Shown here piece by piece: positions 14,980-24,175 of a stretch of DNA of 64,000 nucleotides. Numbering within the stretch: position 1 is the first letter of the stretch; each line of letters starts with the position of its first letter. Origin of the DNA: Enterobacteria phage GiZh; sequence record NC_054903.1. One strand, written 5' to 3'. The position numbers and the translations under genes are program-made. The notes under the pieces were generated by a model. That model saw only the letters and a list, made by a program, of their open reading frames with translations, ran no database searches and had not been told where the DNA came from.

Positions 14980-15008
14980 ATTATACCACAGTCAAGAGGA
15001 AAAGTAAA
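14980..15008 (-). promoter_or_regulatory. early promoter (PeSL-type) of regB: -35 TTTACT, 17 bp, -10 TATAAT
   Basis: Inverted repeat TCCTCTT / AAGAGGA (14960-14966, 14994-15000) brackets the -10; 21-nt leader to the regB ATG. Confidence 0.6.
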
Positions 15009-15011
15009 CAG

Positions 15012-15290
15012 TTATTCTTTAAATCTAATCAATTTATTCATAGACTTTGAAACTTCTGCACGAACCTCACGTAAGTTTTTAAGCTGTTCAAGACGCTGCT
15101 CATAGTAAGCAATTTCATCTTCTTCGAGACAGTCCTGTGAATCTTCTTTAAGATAACGTGCATAGTCCTGAAAAGCTTTACGGACTACTTCCTGAAAGTC
15201 ATCAAGACTTTGAATTTTCTTAGGAGCGGCAGATACACGACGAGGTGCAGTATAATACTCATAACCAAACCCTGCACTTAATTGAGCCAT
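15012..15290 (-). CDS. hypothetical protein, 92 aa
   Basis: ORF track 15012..15332 (GTG start) trimmed to ATG at 15290 with AGAGGAA upstream; TAATG coupling to the upstream stop. Confidence 0.55.
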
Positions 15291-15556
15291 TAGTATTTTT
15301 CCTCTGGTTGGAACACTGCACGACAAGCCCACATACTGGCTTCTTTGAGTTTCGTTTTAGCAATAGTTAACTGATCGAGGCTTTCAGCGTAATTCTTCGC
15401 GAGTTCATCATCTTCACAGCTATCAAATGCTTCCCAAAATTCATCGTATAAAGCATCAAAGATAAGTCCTAAACGAACTTCAGCGTCTTTAATAGCATTT
15501 ACTTTACCGATTTTTTCGTCGGTATGCGGCTTATAACCTTTAATATCTTCAATCAT
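15290..15556 (-). CDS. small helical protein, 88 aa; position of T4 vs.4 (anti-CBASS Acb2 family?)
   Basis: ORF track 15290..15592 trimmed to ATG at 15556 (MIEDIKGY) with GAGGAA upstream. Assignment to vs.4/Acb2 is by gene order only. Confidence 0.5.
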
Positions 15557-15770
15557 ATTTGACTTCCTCACCAGTGCATAAATCATATTCAACTAAACGA
15601 ATAGGTTCATGAATGCCATATCCTTGAACAGAAATTTCTGTCGTAGGATAAATTCCATCAATATCACCCATATTCCAGGCTTCATTAAATTGCTGTTCGC
15701 CTGAATTACTAAACCACTCGGCGAAAGCATTTAGCACATCTTTAGAACCTTCAATAATTATCTTTGCCAT
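15549..15770 (-). CDS. hypothetical protein, 73 aa
   Basis: ORF track; TAATG coupling to the upstream stop. Confidence 0.55.
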   Translation of the reverse strand: MAKIIIEGSKDVLNAFAEWFSNSGEQQFNEAWNMGDIDGIYPTTEISVQGYGIHEPIRLVEYDLCTGEEVKYD

Positions 15771-16132
15771 TACAAACTCTCGGTGAAGGTACGAGCGATA
15801 ACGTCGCGCTGCTGTTCCGGAGTCAGAGAATTAAAGCGAACTGCATAACCTGATACACGGATGGTCAGCTGCGGATATTTTTCCGGATGCTTAACTGCAT
15901 CTTCCAGAGTTTCACGACGCAGAACGTTAACGTTCAGGTGTTGACCACCTTCAATTTTAACTGTAGGCTGTGGTTCAATTTCAATTTCACGGGCATGCAA
16001 ACCGTAGAAAATTTCTGGGTCTACAAAAGAGTCCTCTTTAAAGGTTTTAGAGACAATAATTCGTGCTTGAATACCATCTTCAAAATAAATAGTACCTTTA
16101 TGTGTGCCTTCAAGAATTTGATATGCTTTCAT
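15770..16132 (-). CDS. autonomous glycyl-radical cofactor protein (GrcA/YfiD-like), 120 aa
   Basis: C-terminus ...[33 protein letters not shown] carries the glycyl-radical motif RVSGY; C-terminal ~60 aa look identical to E. coli GrcA from memory; the 3' half of the gene is visibly GC-richer than flanking phage DNA. Confidence 0.9.
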
Positions 16133-16138
16133 ATAACC

Positions 16139-16468
16139 TCAATTAGAAAATAAATTTATCCAAGATTGTTCTTTAATTAAAAATGGCTCAGAATCATATG
16201 CCATTAAACTTTGGGTAATTAGTCCTTTAAAAGGCCCATCAATAAATTCCATGGTAAAATATGGAATTTTATTCATTAATCTTGCATTAGGAGCAGTGCA
16301 CAAAACTCTGCATCCTTTGAATACGCCTTTTTGTAATTTGTATTGCTTGGGATAAAATTCGCTTAAAATGTTATTATTTGCCAAAATTTCAAAATGATTT
16401 ACCAATTTATTTTTAATAGTTTTTGGCGAAAAATAGAGATATTCGAAAAGCTGTGTGTCTGTCATCAT
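16139..16468 (-). CDS. hypothetical protein, ~109 aa
   Basis: ORF track 16139..16519 trimmed to ATG at 16468 (MMTDTQLFEY), which forms an ATGA overlap with the upstream stop. Confidence 0.55.
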   Translation of the reverse strand: MMTDTQLFEYLYFSPKTIKNKLVNHFEILANNNILSEFYPKQYKLQKGVFKGCRVLCTAPNARLMNKIPYFTMEFIDGPFKGLITQSLMAYDSEPFLIKEQSWINLFSN

Positions 16469-17004
16469 TGCATTCCGATTACGAAAAACTGTGGACGAGT
16501 AATACCACCAATGCAACATTTACTATTACAGCAGTAGTGTACAGTGTCAATATGGACGCTATAAATCTTATCCATATCAGGAGATTTGACAGGCTCATCA
16601 ATTATATACAAAATTCGCGAAAGCGATAAACCTCTGAACTTGCTTCCTTTATTACCGATAAAACTACGGACAGAATCGGTAAATAAACGGAATCGAATAT
16701 CATCGCTAGAATAACGAGAAAATTCTTTTTTAATGTGGCCTGCAGAAATTTTAGCGTAAGCTGAAGTATTAGAAAGAACAATAACTGTTCCACCATCATA
16801 CAGCCAATTAGCGGCAAAGTTAGTTACTGCAGTTGATTTACCGGATTGACGTCCACCATCTATACGAAGTGTGCAGTACTGTTTAAGTAATTCTTCAAAT
16901 GGTGGGATATAATCGTTTTTACAAATTTCTTCTACTCTAGCATCAGAATGGTGTGTAAAAGCATTCATCAGGGATAGATAAGGACCAGTTAAAAATGTTC
17001 TCAT
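16465..17004 (-). CDS. small P-loop NTPase, ~179 aa
   Basis: Walker A GGRQSGKST and Walker-B-like LYIIDE; ORF track 16465..17052 trimmed to ATG at 17004 (MRTFLTGPY) with AGAGAG upstream. Confidence 0.62.
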   Translation of the reverse strand: MRTFLTGPYLSLMNAFTHHSDARVEEICKNDYIPPFEELLKQYCTLRIDGGRQSGKSTAVTNFAANWLYDGGTVIVLSNTSAYAKISAGHIKKEFSRYSSDDIRFRLFTDSVRSFIGNKGSKFRGLSLSRILYIIDEPVKSPDMDKIYSVHIDTVHYCCNSKCCIGGITRPQFFVIGMQ

Positions 17005-17145
17005 TTTATTCTCTCTAAATTTGGGCCATTCCGTGGCGCATGAATTGTCCATTTCTGTATTTACCCATTACCGCACTCAGGCTCGACCTTATCACAGGTT
17101 GGCGGGAATCCCTCACAGAATCATGAGGTCCAGCTTGTTCCCATA

Positions 17146-17619
17146 TTATTTGAACGATTTAACGTACTGAATAGAACCTTTACTATTCACAAAGGCAATT
17201 TTACCATTTTTATTATACATGGTAGCAGTACGTTGATAACCATAAGTTTGTTTACCAGATTGATAACCAACTAATGCGAAATTATCTTCGCCCATTTTAT
17301 TCTGTTTAGCGCGAATGCGTTCATGACCATGTGCCATAAGAACCTTAGCATCACCAGTTGCAATGGATCGACGAGTTTTTTCATCTTCAACTGTATTAAC
17401 AAAGTCGTCAAATGAATCAAATTTAGCATGAGATTTATTATACAATTTTCCATCTACTGCATAATTATATCCCTGTACATCCATCTCAACTTCTGTACCA
17501 TCATCCAATACAGCAGTGATTTTTTGACCTTTTTTAAATTTCAAAAGATCAGTAAAAGATTCAGCAATAATTTGAGAATTAATAGCTGCTTCAGTGATAA
17601 ATTCTTGATATGTTTTCAT
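17146..17619 (-). CDS. internal-protein-like capsid-targeted protein, 157 aa (ipII/ipIII position)
   Basis: N-terminus MKTYQEFITEAAINSQIIAE matches the T4 internal-protein capsid-targeting sequence (MKTYQEFIAE...) with Glu cleavage sites. Confidence 0.7.
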   Translation of the reverse strand: MKTYQEFITEAAINSQIIAESFTDLLKFKKGQKITAVLDDGTEVEMDVQGYNYAVDGKLYNKSHAKFDSFDDFVNTVEDEKTRRSIATGDAKVLMAHGHERIRAKQNKMGEDNFALVGYQSGKQTYGYQRTATMYNKNGKIAFVNSKGSIQYVKSFK

Positions 17620-17628
17620 ATGTTTCCT

Positions 17629-18045
17629 TTAAATGTAAATATTTTTACCGTAATACTTATACCAATGTGGTTTCATTAAAATTTTTTCATCAAGTCGTTG
17701 TTGACTCAATTTAATAGCTGATTTGCATGGATTATAATCATTTTTCCATTCTACTGGAATATCGCTGATGTCAGGAACTTCAGTATCTTTTATACTGAAC
17801 CCGCGTTTTAAGCATTCCGTTATAATGTCTAATTGACTCTTTCGCAAAAATTCTAACTTATCGTAAAAGAACGTAACATGACCAGAACCTAAAATAAACT
17901 CGGAAGATATTTTAAAATCTTTAACGCGCTTACCGTTTGCCACATGCTTACGAACTATACCAAAAACACGCGGCAATTCACGGTATTCTGCGATTAAATG
18001 TTGATCAGCAAGTTCAGATACTAAAGTCAAATTAATACGAGTCAT
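17629..18045 (-). CDS. denV: endonuclease V (pyrimidine-dimer DNA glycosylase)
   Basis: 138 aa, [29 protein letters not shown]...; I recognise this as T4 EndoV; GGAGGG upstream; early promoter at 18071-18099. Confidence 0.92.
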
Positions 18046-18070
18046 TTTATCCCTCCAATTAACTGTGAAT

Positions 18071-18099
18071 ATACTATCACAATTCTAGGAGAAAGTAAA
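18071..18099 (-). promoter_or_regulatory. early promoter (PeSL-type) of denV: -35 TTTACT, 17 bp, -10 TAGTAT
   Basis: Same -35/spacer/-10 architecture as the other elements. Confidence 0.55.
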
Positions 18100-18104
18100 C
18101 AACT

Positions 18105-18635
<531 letters not shown>

Positions 18636-19091
18636 TTAAAAGAGGCTGTTCATTATTCGGTAAAGTGAAGGACCCATCACATATTGCCACTGAGTACGAG
18701 GAATAAGAGCAAAAGCATCCATCTCTGGAATCATAACACCATCTTTATTTTCAAAATAAGACTCGCAATGGCAATTTCTAAACATCTCATGCTCTACTGG
18801 AATCGTATAATAAAACAGCTGTAAGTCTTTATTACTAGAATATTTAAATACACCTAGGTCTTCTAGAAGGTCTGGATTATAATTGCTAAAACCGGTCTCT
18901 TCTAAGCATTCTCTTCGTGCTGCATCTAGTGCGCTCAAATCAGAATTTTCTACACGGCCTTTTGGAATATCCCAACGATGTGCCATCATTCCAGGCTTAC
19001 GAGAACCAGTAACCCGTCCCATGAATAAATCTTTATCTTCTGTCATAAAGATAATACCAGCTGATAATGTTTTCATTTTAATTTCCTGCAT
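18636..19091 (-). CDS. nudE: Nudix hydrolase
   Basis: 151 aa with Nudix box GRVENSDLSALDAARRECLEETGF; same length and position as T4 NudE (e.1). Confidence 0.85.
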   Translation of the reverse strand: MQEIKMKTLSAGIIFMTEDKDLFMGRVTGSRKPGMMAHRWDIPKGRVENSDLSALDAARRECLEETGFSNYNPDLLEDLGVFKYSSNKDLQLFYYTIPVEHEMFRNCHCESYFENKDGVMIPEMDAFALIPRTQWQYVMGPSLYRIMNSLF

Positions 19092-19561
19092 TCGGTGATA
19101 AAATTATTTAAATTTTGAGTGTATTTCTTTTCATCAAAAATCTTTTGCTGCCTACGTAAACGCCATGGCATTTCAATGAACACGCACCATATTCCTGATA
19201 GTACTGCTGCTGTAAAAATATTAACAAGTATAATTAAAAGAATCCAATCTTCCGTTCTGCCTACTGGACTTTCTCCAAAGAAGCAAAATACAAATGATGT
19301 CACAGGAAAACTAATAATATACCACAGAATAACCTTCTTATCTGTGAACCAATCAGCGTTCGTTAACTTAGCACGACCATTTTGAATACACACGAATTTA
19401 TCATCTGTTACAGTAGATGGCTTAACTGCTTGATATCCCATTCTAAACTCCCTAATTAATCGTTTCTTTGTATCTTCAGAACAGCCGCTCCAGTCAACTC
19501 TATCGACTGAAATGCCATCGTCCCCATCATCTAAATCATACCAGCGAGTTTTTAAAATCAT
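19073..19561 (-). CDS. membrane protein, 162 aa
   Basis: Two C-terminal hydrophobic helices; C-terminal motif FITECRKLK shared with the next three genes. Confidence 0.65.
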   Translation of the reverse strand: MILKTRWYDLDDGDDGISVDRVDWSGCSEDTKKRLIREFRMGYQAVKPSTVTDDKFVCIQNGRAKLTNADWFTDKKVILWYIISFPVTSFVFCFFGESPVGRTEDWILLIILVNIFTAAVLSGIWCVFIEMPWRLRRQQKIFDEKKYTQNLNNFITECRKLK

Positions 19562-23344: not shown

Positions 23345-23420
23345 TGGTCGAGGCAGTAGGGATCGAACCTACGACCTAGGACTTAGAAGGTCCTTGCTCT
23401 TCCTTCTGAGCTATGCCTCG
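23345..23420 (-). tRNA. tRNA-Arg (anticodon UCU)
   Basis: Acceptor CGAGGCA/TGCCTCG, anticodon stem-loop AGGAC-CTTCTAA-GTCCT, T-arm GTAGG-TTCGATC-CCTAC, CCA encoded. Confidence 0.82.
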
Positions 23421-23424
23421 GATT

Positions 23425-23499
23425 TGGCGGACGTGATAGGATTCGAACCTATAACCAATCGCTTAACAGGCGATCGCTCTGCCATTGAGCTACACATCC
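23425..23499 (-). tRNA. tRNA-Asn (anticodon GUU)
   Basis: Sequence GGATGTGTAGCTCAATGGCAGAGCGATCGCCTGTTAAGCGATTGGTTATAGGTTCGAATCCTATCACGTCCGCCA. Confidence 0.82.
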
Positions 23500-23503
23500 A
23501 AAT

Positions 23504-23590
23504 TGGTGGGGAGTGATGGAGTCGAACCACCCGAGTCGCAATGACAATGGATTTACAGTCCACACCGCTACCTCTACGGGATAACTCCCC
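23504..23590 (-). tRNA. tRNA-Tyr (anticodon GUA), class II
   Basis: Acceptor GGGGAGT/ACTCCCC, anticodon stem-loop GTGGA-CTGTAAA-TCCAT, variable arm TGTCATTGCGACTCG resembling bacterial tRNA-Tyr, T-loop TTCGACT, CCA encoded. Confidence 0.75.
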
Positions 23591-23602
23591 TAATTCATAA
23601 TT

Positions 23603-23677
23603 TGGTGGCCCTGGGTGGAATTGAACCACCATCTGGCGATTATGAGTCGCTTGCTTGAACCTTCCAGCTACAGGGCC
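23603..23677 (-). tRNA. tRNA with anticodon CAU (Ile with modified C34, or Met)
   Basis: Acceptor GGCCCTG/CAGGGCC, anticodon loop CTCATAA, T-arm GGTGG-TTCAATT-CCACC, CCA encoded; starts 1 nt after tRNA-Thr. T4 has an Ile tRNA at this position (memory). Confidence 0.75.
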
Positions 23678-23678
23678 T

Positions 23679-23754
23679 TGGTGCTGATTGACGGAATCGA
23701 ACCGCCGACCTTCTCATTACAAGTGAGTTGCTCTACCTACTGAGCTAAATCAGC
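23679..23754 (-). tRNA. tRNA-Thr (anticodon UGU)
   Basis: Acceptor GCTGATT/AATCAGC, D-arm GCTC-AGTAGGTA-GAGC, anticodon loop CTTGTAA, T-loop TTCGATT, CCA encoded. Confidence 0.85.
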
Positions 23755-23759
23755 AAAAC

Positions 23760-23849
23760 TGGCGGAGGCGATAGGATTTGAACCTATGAGTCGCCGGAGC
23801 GACTGCCGGTTTTCAAGACCGGTGCATTAAACCACTCTGCCACGCCTCC
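23760..23849 (-). tRNA. tRNA-Ser (anticodon UGA), class II
   Basis: Acceptor GGAGGCG/CGCCTCC, anticodon loop CTTGAAA, long variable arm, CCA encoded; starts 2 nt after tRNA-Pro. Confidence 0.85.
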
Positions 23850-23851
23850 AG

Positions 23852-23925
23852 TCTCCATACAAGGATTTGAACCTTGGACCTCCTGATCCCAAATCAGGCG
23901 CTCTACCAAACTGAGCTACACGGAG
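23852..23925 (-). tRNA. tRNA-Pro (anticodon UGG)
   Basis: Sequence CTCCGTGTAGCTCAGTTTGGTAGAGCGCCTGATTTGGGATCAGGAGGTCCAAGGTTCAAATCCTTGTATGGAG; CCA not encoded. Confidence 0.88.
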
Positions 23926-23935
23926 TAAATTAAAT

Positions 23936-24009
<74 letters not shown>

Positions 24010-24014
24010 AAATT

Positions 24015-24101
24015 TGGTGCGAGAAGTGGGACTCGAACCCACAAGGAAATCATTCCGCAGCATTTTAAGTGCTGTACCTTTACCAATTTGACCATTCTCG
24101 C
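24015..24101 (-). tRNA. tRNA-Leu (anticodon UAA), class II long variable arm
   Basis: Acceptor GCGAGAA/TTCTCGC, T-loop TTCGAGT, anticodon loop CTTAAAA, CCA encoded; starts 1-2 nt after tRNA-Gln (dimeric precursor arrangement). Confidence 0.85.
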
Positions 24102-24102
24102 G

Positions 24103-24175
24103 CTGGGAATAAAGGACTCGAACCTTTGCATCCTGGAATCAAAATCCAGTGCCTTACCAACTTGGCTAATTCCCA
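24103..24175 (-). tRNA. tRNA-Gln (anticodon UUG)
   Basis: Hand-folded cloverleaf: acceptor TGGGAAT/ATTCCCA, T-arm AAAGG-TTCGAGT-CCTTT, anticodon loop TTTTGAT; CCA not encoded. Ends +/-2 nt. Confidence 0.85.

Follow-up and report, generated by a model that had tools for sequence, protein, structure and literature searches.

Introduction

Mimicry of antitoxins is known among phages, with ToxI/pseudo-ToxI and T4 Dmd as examples. Blower et al. reportedly described the ToxI RNA antitoxins of type III systems and a pseudo-ToxI carried by phage PhiTE. In that case a host protein is bound by a pseudoknotted RNA encoded alongside it, the phage escapes by carrying only the RNA, and the module is also found on plasmids. 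Here we describe an RNA that appears to share this logic. It lies in the gap between Ip4 and vs.8, at positions 17005-17145 of a 64,000-nucleotide (nt) stretch of Enterobacteria phage GiZh (NC_054903.1; hereafter the window), a Tequatrovirus sequence close to RB14 and teqhad. We conclude with high confidence that it is a real structured RNA of the SroH family (Rfam RF00372), of which it represents the phage branch.

The arrangement of the two kinds of system differs. ToxI is a tandem 36-nt repeat that precedes toxN on the same strand and that the toxin processes, whereas the SroH-type RNA is single, is approximately 90-160 nt long, and in bacteria is convergent with its companion gene, yjaZ. 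ToxN has a Kid/CcdB-like fold, whereas the fold predicted for YjaZ weakly resembles RelE/ParE. T4 itself produces the stable RNAs C and D (species 1 and 2), small RNAs of unknown function that are encoded in the transfer RNA (tRNA) cluster and are not tRNAs. Like the SroH-like RNA these are small, non-tRNA and tRNA-associated, but they lie about 6 kb away from it.

SroH of Escherichia coli (b4691, ~161 nt) is a small RNA (sRNA) with a patchy distribution among E. coli strains (PMC3318445). A topological parallel is provided by the hepatitis delta virus (HDV)-like and theta ribozymes, which share the nested double pseudoknot of the RNA described here and, like it, occur in phage genomes near tRNA genes. 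HDV-like ribozymes need an unsubstitutable catalytic cytosine at the first position of J4/2 (PMC10879173). Their P4 domain is dispensable, whereas the equivalent domain is the most conserved part of the phage RNA. Theta ribozymes have their cleavage site within +/-5 nt of a tRNA, whereas the element in the window is ~6 kb from the nearest one.

Results

Structure of the RNA

Judged from its sequence, the gap encodes a compact structured RNA on the minus strand. The core consists of six helices (Table 1). Helices A and K cross, forming a nested double pseudoknot that encloses hairpin B, and this is followed by a three-way junction of X, C and D. The junction holds approximately 20 invariant bases in the pattern A-ACCU..AGGU-CGA-GC.....G.GC-GGUAA.

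The evidence for this model comes from covariation among 30 non-identical, diverse copies, each of which was segmented by hand, checked against its own locus and padded with N, with artificial anchors added to keep the alignment unchanged. Standard pairs occupied 97.5% of 648 pair cells compared to 70.6% in shuffles, and none of 500 shuffles reached the observed value. Both sides changed in 20 of the 27 pairs, and the covariation score was 0.538 (0.142 in shuffles). When the 3' partners were slid by 1-3 columns as a control, only 26-43% of cells paired. All five pairs of helix A change on both sides (97.9% of cells paired; variants GGGAG/CUCCC, AAAGC/GCUUU and GAGUG/CACUC), as do all three of helix X (GAC/GUU, GCA/UGU, GGC/GCU, CAU/AUG) and six of seven in helix K (CGCCGA/UCGGUG, GUGAGGG/CCCUUAC and, in SroH, CAGA/UCUG). 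Helix K has 3 base pairs (bp) in the window and 4-7 bp elsewhere, while hairpin B differs in length between lineages. Hairpin C has the stem CCA/UGG in Pseudomonas phage KIL1, in the metagenomic copy L154 and on plasmids, and ACCC/GGGU in cyanobacterial SroH. The second pair of hairpin D is C-G, U-A, A-U or G-C, depending on the lineage. Because of its G-U pairs the fold is specific to the minus strand, and therefore belongs to an RNA and not to a DNA site.

Two points count against this structural reading. The alignment used for covariation was matched to the structure by eye, and its counts therefore favour that structure. This concern is reduced because helices also appear where no such fitting took place. 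In a structure-blind MAFFT alignment of the flanks in T4-like genera, helix K still switches in register (CGCCGA/UCGGUG, ACAC/GUGU, CCGA/UCGG). Every helix is present in the lineages that were found later and were unused in deriving the model (L154, L136, L150 and L171), and every helix is likewise present in the bacterial SroH copies. The second point is that single-sequence folding of the gap gave a minimum free energy of -31.8 kcal/mol with z = 0.21, no better than chance, so the evidence for structure is comparative and not thermodynamic.

With P1 = A, P2 = K, P3 = B and P4 = X+C+D, the topology matches that of HDV-like ribozymes (PMC10879173), which raises the question of a self-cleaving ribozyme or RNA-processing module that would cut the early polycistronic transcript (Ip4/vs.8) or tRNA-cluster transcripts. 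Small ribozymes are common beside phage tRNA genes, and the T4-like element begins right after the upstream stop codon. We nevertheless consider such a module improbable. The window lacks any C between D3' and K3' (17072-17058), the J4/2 equivalent has no conserved C in any lineage and begins with A, U or nothing, and P1.1 could not be accommodated. Searches with the Rfam ribozyme models gave no match at E <= 10. Obligatory self-cleavage is additionally at odds with stand-alone copies that have their own promoter and terminator, and with host SroH, which is a stable 160-nt sRNA. Hammerhead, twister and similar ribozymes were also rejected, as their junction lengths and sequences misfit by eye and gave no Rfam matches.

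Relationship to SroH

A blastn search with the L154 copy led to small ColE1-type plasmids of Klebsiella, Proteus, E. coli and Enterobacter. The plasmid copies (L173, L174) score 99-103 bits on the Rfam sroH model, for which the gathering score is 80. The same copies score 34-36 bits on R1, a covariance model of the 41-nt core built from 23 phage copies only. R1 also recognized the annotated K-12 sroH (b4691) at 35.4 bits (E = 2.5e-11). In the window it found exactly one copy, at 66 bits, and no second one; the best score near the tRNA cluster was 6.8 bits.

When K-12 SroH is read directly, the same elements are found: A as GGAUG/CAUCC, K as CAGA/UCUG, B as CUGAA/UUCAG, X as CGC/GCG, hairpin C as ACCU..AGGU, hairpin D as GG/CC, and the junctions as CAA and GGUAAUGG. 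The same six helices can be read in the same order in K-12, plasmids, cyanobacteria, Thiolinea and Aeromonas, and SroH and the phage RNA share the junction ACCU..AGGUC-A/G-AG..G..CGGUAA. They differ in that the bacterial helices A and K keep GGAUG..CAGA..CAUCC..UCUG, where the phage sequences diverge, and in that SroH has a 3' hairpin and terminator, which the phage copies lack. Furthermore, phage copies have no yjaZ partner, and in T4-like phages they are embedded in messenger RNA upstream of vs.8, unlike SroH.

One result speaks against the family assignment. Between 16300 and 17800 the window copy matched no Rfam family at E <= 10; it obtained no score on the sroH model and is hence below the 80-bit gathering score. 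The Rfam sroH model cannot reach phage copies because it annotates only the terminator structure.

An earlier note on this DNA, made from the sequence alone, had listed a host-derived remnant among the possible origins of the gap. This is correct in the deep sense that the RNA is homologous to a host sRNA. It does not hold for a recent capture, since a blastn search of 5,426 complete E. coli genomes with the window copy gave no match. Recent capture was also rejected on an exact-pattern scan of 185,579 species genomes, which gave only GC-rich chance matches without hairpin C.

Table 1. Coordinates of the SroH-like RNA, its parts and the neighbouring genes in the window.
Feature	Position	Strand	Remarks
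SroH-like RNA core, 88 nt	17142->17055	minus	order A5'-K5'-B-A3'-X5'-C-D-X3'-K3'; predicted from sequence
Helix A, 5' strand GGGAA	17138..17142	minus	partner 17104-17108
Helix A, 3' strand UUCCC	17104..17108	minus	covariation
Helix K, 5' strand CUG	17131..17133	minus	partner 17055-17057; crosses helix A
Helix K, 3' strand CAG	17055..17057	minus	covariation
Hairpin B, CCUCAU-GAUUCU-GUGAGG	17111..17128	minus	100% of cells paired; 4/6 pairs change on both sides
Helix X, 5' strand GCC	17101..17103	minus	closes three-way junction; partner 17063-17065
Helix X, 3' strand GGU	17063..17065	minus	covariation
Hairpin C, ACCU-GUGAUA-AGGU	17086..17099	minus	100% paired
Junction CGA	17083..17085	minus	invariant in phage copies; CAA in E. 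coli SroH
Mini-hairpin D, GC-CUGAGU-GC	17073..17082	minus	invariant G at loop position 5
Junction GGUAAUG	17066..17072	minus	GGUAA invariant in every copy, including bacterial SroH
Conserved T4-like-specific tail, AAAUGGACAAUUCAUGCGCCACGGAAUGGCCC	17023..17054	minus	vs.8 5' leader; holds GCCA/UGGC hairpin; outside core family
nudE	18636-19091	minus	
e	18105-18599	minus	
denV	17629-18045	minus	
Ip4	17146-17619	minus	
vs.8	16465-17004	minus	

Pairing with yjaZ

In E. coli K-12, on the plasmids and in L154, sroH lies tail-to-tail with yjaZ (htrC; NCBIfam PRK09717, Pfam PF27200) at a distance of 1-20 nt. On the 2.4-kb ColE1-type plasmid pB1022, yjaZ-sroH is essentially the sole cargo besides the replicon. 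At four distant yjaZ loci (two cyanobacterial, one each from Thiolinea and Aeromonas) the best R1 match lies 57-100 nt beyond the yjaZ stop codon, on the other strand. All SroH elements can be recognized there, with previously unseen compensatory variants in helices B, X and C. Since these distant loci keep the pair, yjaZ-sroH is a conserved two-gene module. Its mobility, seen in the minimal plasmids and the patchy occurrence of SroH, is typical of addiction or defence modules.

In contrast, the RNA stands alone in phage records. A tblastn search with YjaZ found nothing in 50,697 phage records. In the window the RNA is not convergent with yjaZ, as its neighbours are Ip4 and vs.8, and vs.8 is unrelated to YjaZ.

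No sequence relative of YjaZ was identified in the PDB, and none of the Pfam models searched matched it. A confident AlphaFold2 model based on 40 homologues was obtained, with a predicted local distance difference test (pLDDT) score of 90.3 and a predicted template modelling (pTM) score of 0.87. The predicted fold weakly resembles RelE/ParE toxins, a likeness that is suggestive but is not proof.

Several features were noted around the module. On pB1022 (L173) yjaZ is split into two frames (1148-1501 and 1565-1810; 117 and 81 amino acids), both of which match PRK09717, while the convergent SroH gene is intact; on this plasmid the toxin-like gene may have been inactivated and the RNA retained. 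The neighbours of yjaZ-sroH are of a mobile or toxin-antitoxin type and include an open reading frame (ORF) for a Fic-domain protein with the motif HPFLDGNGRTGR (L154 3948-4352), a HicB-like antitoxin in a cyanobacterium (L176 221-475) and an HP1-prophage-like gene in Aeromonas (L177 5485-5543).

Distribution among phages

A blastn search with the 141-nt gap matched 1072 phage records. In all T4-like genera inspected (Tequatrovirus, Dhakavirus, Jiaodavirus and Karamvirus) the segment lies directly upstream of vs.8, whatever gene precedes it (Ip4, denV or a hypothetical gene). The core of ~45 nt (17061-17111) is present at 85-93% identity in rV5-like Vequintavirinae, Flaumdravirus, Pseudomonas phage KIL1, 137-kb Vibrio phages and Klebsiella phage Pylas. 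These non-T4-like copies lie in unannotated DNA, and most have tRNA genes on their own strand at a distance of up to ~1 kb. Further lineages were identified by pattern scans of IMG/VR and metagenomes.

Some copies have transcription signals of their own. L154 and L136 are stand-alone metagenomic copies on the strand opposite to all of their neighbours. L154 has a sigma-70-like promoter (TGTACA-17-TATAAT) and an intrinsic terminator, L136 has a sigma-70-like promoter (TAAACA-18-TATAAT), and in L009 a strong terminator lies 23 nt past K3'. In rV5 a strong near-consensus promoter is found downstream, between the element and the next gene. At the RNA locus of the window only a weak promoter-like site and no terminator were found. 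This site, TTATCA-16-TATAAT (17239-17212, minus strand; 10/12 matches), lies in the 3'-terminal part of Ip4, ~65 nt before the RNA, and could be a putative early promoter for the RNA and vs.8, although such sites are no commoner in the region than expected from shuffled sequence.

In Karamvirus-like contigs (L071 9024-9064 and 9138-9176; also L059 and L163) vs.8 is preceded by two tandem copies of the RNA, the second of which has diverged, with the junction CGAGC changed to CAGC and hairpin B reduced. In rV5 (L003 2529-2864, minus strand) a 112-amino-acid protein with an arginine-rich N-terminus (KKRRRRGRP; phrog_3330) is encoded downstream of the RNA. It is also found in L008, L094, L103 and L106, has its own promoter (TTGACA-17-TAAAAT) and precedes the tRNA cluster. 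This protein was rejected as the partner of the RNA since it is restricted to rV5-like and L008-like lineages. In rV5-like tRNA clusters ARAGORN additionally reports a 99-nt 'tRNA-???' with a 4-base anticodon (atcc) at L003 1862-1960, L011 1714-1812, L122 2501-2599 and L160 3782-3880, which is either an odd tRNA-like gene or a miscall.

Base composition, vs.8 and its leader

All genes around the gap are on the minus strand, and transcription runs through nudE, e, denV, Ip4, the gap and vs.8. The earlier note had described the gap as GC-rich, at about 55% between 17065 and 17125. We measured 54.1%, above the means of the window (36.1%) and of the local surroundings (35.6% at 15001-19500), and only 0.9% of 61-nt segments reach this value. 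The entire gap has 46.8% GC and falls in the top 2.9%. The tract GGTTGGCGGGAATCCC was placed correctly, beginning at 17097, and the proposed CCTCA/TGAGG hairpin (CCTCA at 17111, TGAGG at 17124, 8 nt between them) is real, being our helix B. A second proposed hairpin, GCCA/TGGC, exists (GCCA at 17025, TGGC at 17034) with a spacing of 5 nt and not 4, and is outside the RNA core, in the T4-like-specific tail. The pseudoknot, the invariant three-way junction and the minus strand as the functional strand were absent from that list of features. The suggestion of a structured or small RNA agrees with what we find, a conserved, covarying and pseudoknotted minus-strand RNA, and the covariation analysis proposed as a check supports the helices across the 30 copies.

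A deletion scar or a remnant of an internal-protein (IP) gene had also been suggested. This does not fit the constant position of the segment upstream of vs.8, and the segment aligns to the coding sequence of no IP gene. More generally, the gap could be pictured as a scar, a chance GC-rich remnant or a DNA-level site for packaging or recombination, given that the ipII/ipIII region is hyperplastic in T-even phages and that gene order differs between T4, RB14 and the window. Conservation across phage families and bacteria, compensatory changes and strand-specific G-U pairs refute this, and we assign it virtually no probability.

The statement that the gap has no ORF is loosely true. Mechanical ORFs do exist, namely a minus-strand frame of 33 amino acids at 17015-17116 and an extension of the vs.8 ORF to an ATG at 17052, but none is conserved as an ORF. 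The segment overlaps an annotated coding sequence only in T4, where vs.8 seems over-extended at its 5' end. T4 vs.8 (L002, NC_000866 64253..64912, equivalent to 17005-17116 of the window) is annotated with 219 amino acids, starts at an ATG inside hairpin B and covers the RNA, while RB14 vs.8 is annotated with 189. In the window and most relatives the frame of the T4 extension stops before vs.8. The extension is probably an annotation artefact that arose from a 9-nt duplication (CTTATAGAG x2).

That the segment is coding, as a micropeptide (..QPVIRSS.SAVMG..) or as the vs.8 N-terminus annotated in T4, is very improbable. An open frame does cross the core in the window (with a GTG start) and in T4 (fused to vs.8), and some substitutions look synonymous. 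However, JD18-like, rV5-like and L008-like copies have no start codon upstream of the conserved block, L042, L034 and L066 have a stop 3 codons upstream, and the Vibrio copy has a 1-nt deletion followed by a stop. Downstream lengths range from 4 to 59 codons with unrelated sequences, and the changes compensate base pairs without preserving amino-acid character.

Between the RNA core and vs.8 lies a tail that is kept across T4-like genera and is absent from rV5-like, Pylas-like and bacterial copies. Its consensus in the window, L018, L019, L016 and L014 is AUGGAY-N8-AUGYGCCANGGAAUGGCCC. Two GGA motifs ~18 nt apart, one of them in a hairpin loop, resemble a CsrA site. In many phages the tail also contains a short upstream ORF (MDNSCATEWP...), the stop codon of which overlaps the vs.8 ATG (ATGA) in T4 and JS10 and the start of which is lost in L014.

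The tail connects the element to the vs.8 start region, and this connection, the invariable position before vs.8 in T4-like genera and the tandem copies in Karamvirus-like phages would suit a cis-regulatory leader, either a riboswitch or a protein-binding operator, that controls vs.8. Yet other lineages carry the RNA without vs.8, homologues of which occur only in T4-like phages; the RNA is also found as a separate gene whose neighbours are on the other strand; and neither a terminator nor a Shine-Dalgarno sequence was seen to offer an alternative pairing. We regard a vs.8 leader as a shade less probable even than a ribozyme. For the same reason of distribution, vs.8 was rejected as a universal protein partner of the RNA.

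The vs.8 product has the P-loop motif GGRQSGKS and weakly resembles the terminase large-subunit ATPase domain (phrog_2, E = 3.5e-6); the match to Pfam Terminase_6N is below the cut-off of that family. Several GenBank records call vs.8 an 'endoribonuclease', apparently confusing it with regB. A literature lead on RegB and denV (PMC1702504) was set aside, as it concerns the denV Shine-Dalgarno site and not the SroH-like RNA. ARAGORN found no tRNA within 17005-17145. It placed 10 tRNA genes on the minus strand at 23345-24175 (Gln, Leu, Gly, Pro, Ser, Thr, Met, Tyr, Asn, Arg); T4 has eight, two fewer.

Discussion

The results presented here raise the question of what a phage gains from an RNA of the SroH family. 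We tentatively favour a mechanism, with a reasonable but less than even chance of being correct, in which the phage RNA mimics SroH and engages YjaZ as a decoy. SroH would act as a folded, protein-binding RNA and not as a base-pairing sRNA, with YjaZ as its partner. The phage RNA would be made early, within a transcript running into vs.8, would present the same invariant junction surface, and would bind and neutralise (or titrate) host YjaZ. Such an RNA would be a mimic of an antidote, or an anti-defence decoy, like the pseudo-ToxI that phages carry.

Two observations suggest this mechanism. The junction is deeply conserved while the helices merely covary, which points to a surface that binds a conserved macromolecule, and YjaZ is the only partner candidate that the data indicate. 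Additionally, a mobile pair of toxin-like protein and RNA, together with phages that have the RNA only, follows the logic of antitoxin mimicry. The window copy lies among internal-protein and vs genes, a region known for its counter-defence genes, and this location fits a decoy.

Several points weigh against the decoy mechanism. The link between SroH and YjaZ, and a role for YjaZ as a toxin, rest on gene pairing and a predicted fold. A Foldseek search of the PDB with the YjaZ model returned nothing significant, the best match being HigB2 below the threshold (E = 0.04, probability 0.84), and YjaZ has no match in PADLOC. The RNA lacks the tandem repeats of type III systems, being single-copy (two diverged copies occur only in the Karamvirus-like contigs), and in bacteria it is convergent with yjaZ, an arrangement unlike those systems. 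E. coli sroH can be deleted, leaving a strain that is viable and shows only a sensitivity to envelope stress (PMC5389530), which is unlike a classical essential antitoxin. A decoy does not account for the constant location before vs.8 in T4-like phages, and in these phages the RNA has no terminator of its own and always adjoins vs.8, which leaves room for a role in cis.

The main rival to the decoy mechanism is a trans-acting role that is independent of YjaZ, to which we give a slightly lower probability. The RNA would act on a different conserved host factor (such as one of RNA or tRNA metabolism, or else the ribosome or RNA polymerase) or, as may be the case for SroH in the host, regulate envelope-stress genes, and the adjacency of yjaZ would merely reflect a shared bidirectional terminator or antisense control. 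The envelope-stress phenotype that follows loss of SroH (PMC5389530) would be accounted for, and the same role agrees with the location of the RNA within 1 kb of same-strand tRNA genes in most non-T4 lineages, with its presence in Pseudomonas and Vibrio phages, and with the weakness of the fold evidence for YjaZ as a toxin. It is harder to reconcile with the tail-to-tail arrangement of sroH and yjaZ, which recurs in bacteria from E. coli to cyanobacteria as well as on minimal plasmids and is difficult to understand without functional coupling. Furthermore, no gene common to the phages points to another partner.

The decoy mechanism can be extended to the host side. The yjaZ-sroH pair might constitute a hitherto unrecognized RNA-antitoxin addiction or phage-defence module, in which SroH as a folded RNA would hold a RelE/ParE-like protein in check and which ranges from enterobacteria to cyanobacteria and minimal plasmids, against which T4, rV5 and other virulent phages carry decoys. 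We hold this wider proposal to be more doubtful than the decoy mechanism itself.

The name SroH is already known. The phage branch, the pseudoknotted structure, the universal yjaZ pairing and the RNA-alone contrast are absent from Rfam 15, from the GenBank records inspected and from the searchable literature, although the catalogue of Fremin 2023 (PMC10690425) may include the RNA unnamed. Although few genomes have been studied as much as those of T4 and its relatives, none of the records that we inspected annotates the RNA. With our results, a doubly pseudoknotted, conserved RNA gene can be assigned to more than 1000 genomes of phages that belong to several unrelated families. They also portray SroH as a highly structured and deeply conserved RNA with a fixed gene partner, yjaZ, unlike a typical base-pairing sRNA. 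RNA antidote mimicry of a toxin-like host protein is a hypothesis that can be tested directly on the phage RNA as well as on the host module. Should the wider proposal be true, the orphan sRNA SroH, the orphan protein family PF27200 and an RNA gene overlooked in the best-studied phage would all be given functions. Whether or not the decoy idea holds, the structure model and the enlarged family suffice to revise RF00372 and phage annotations.

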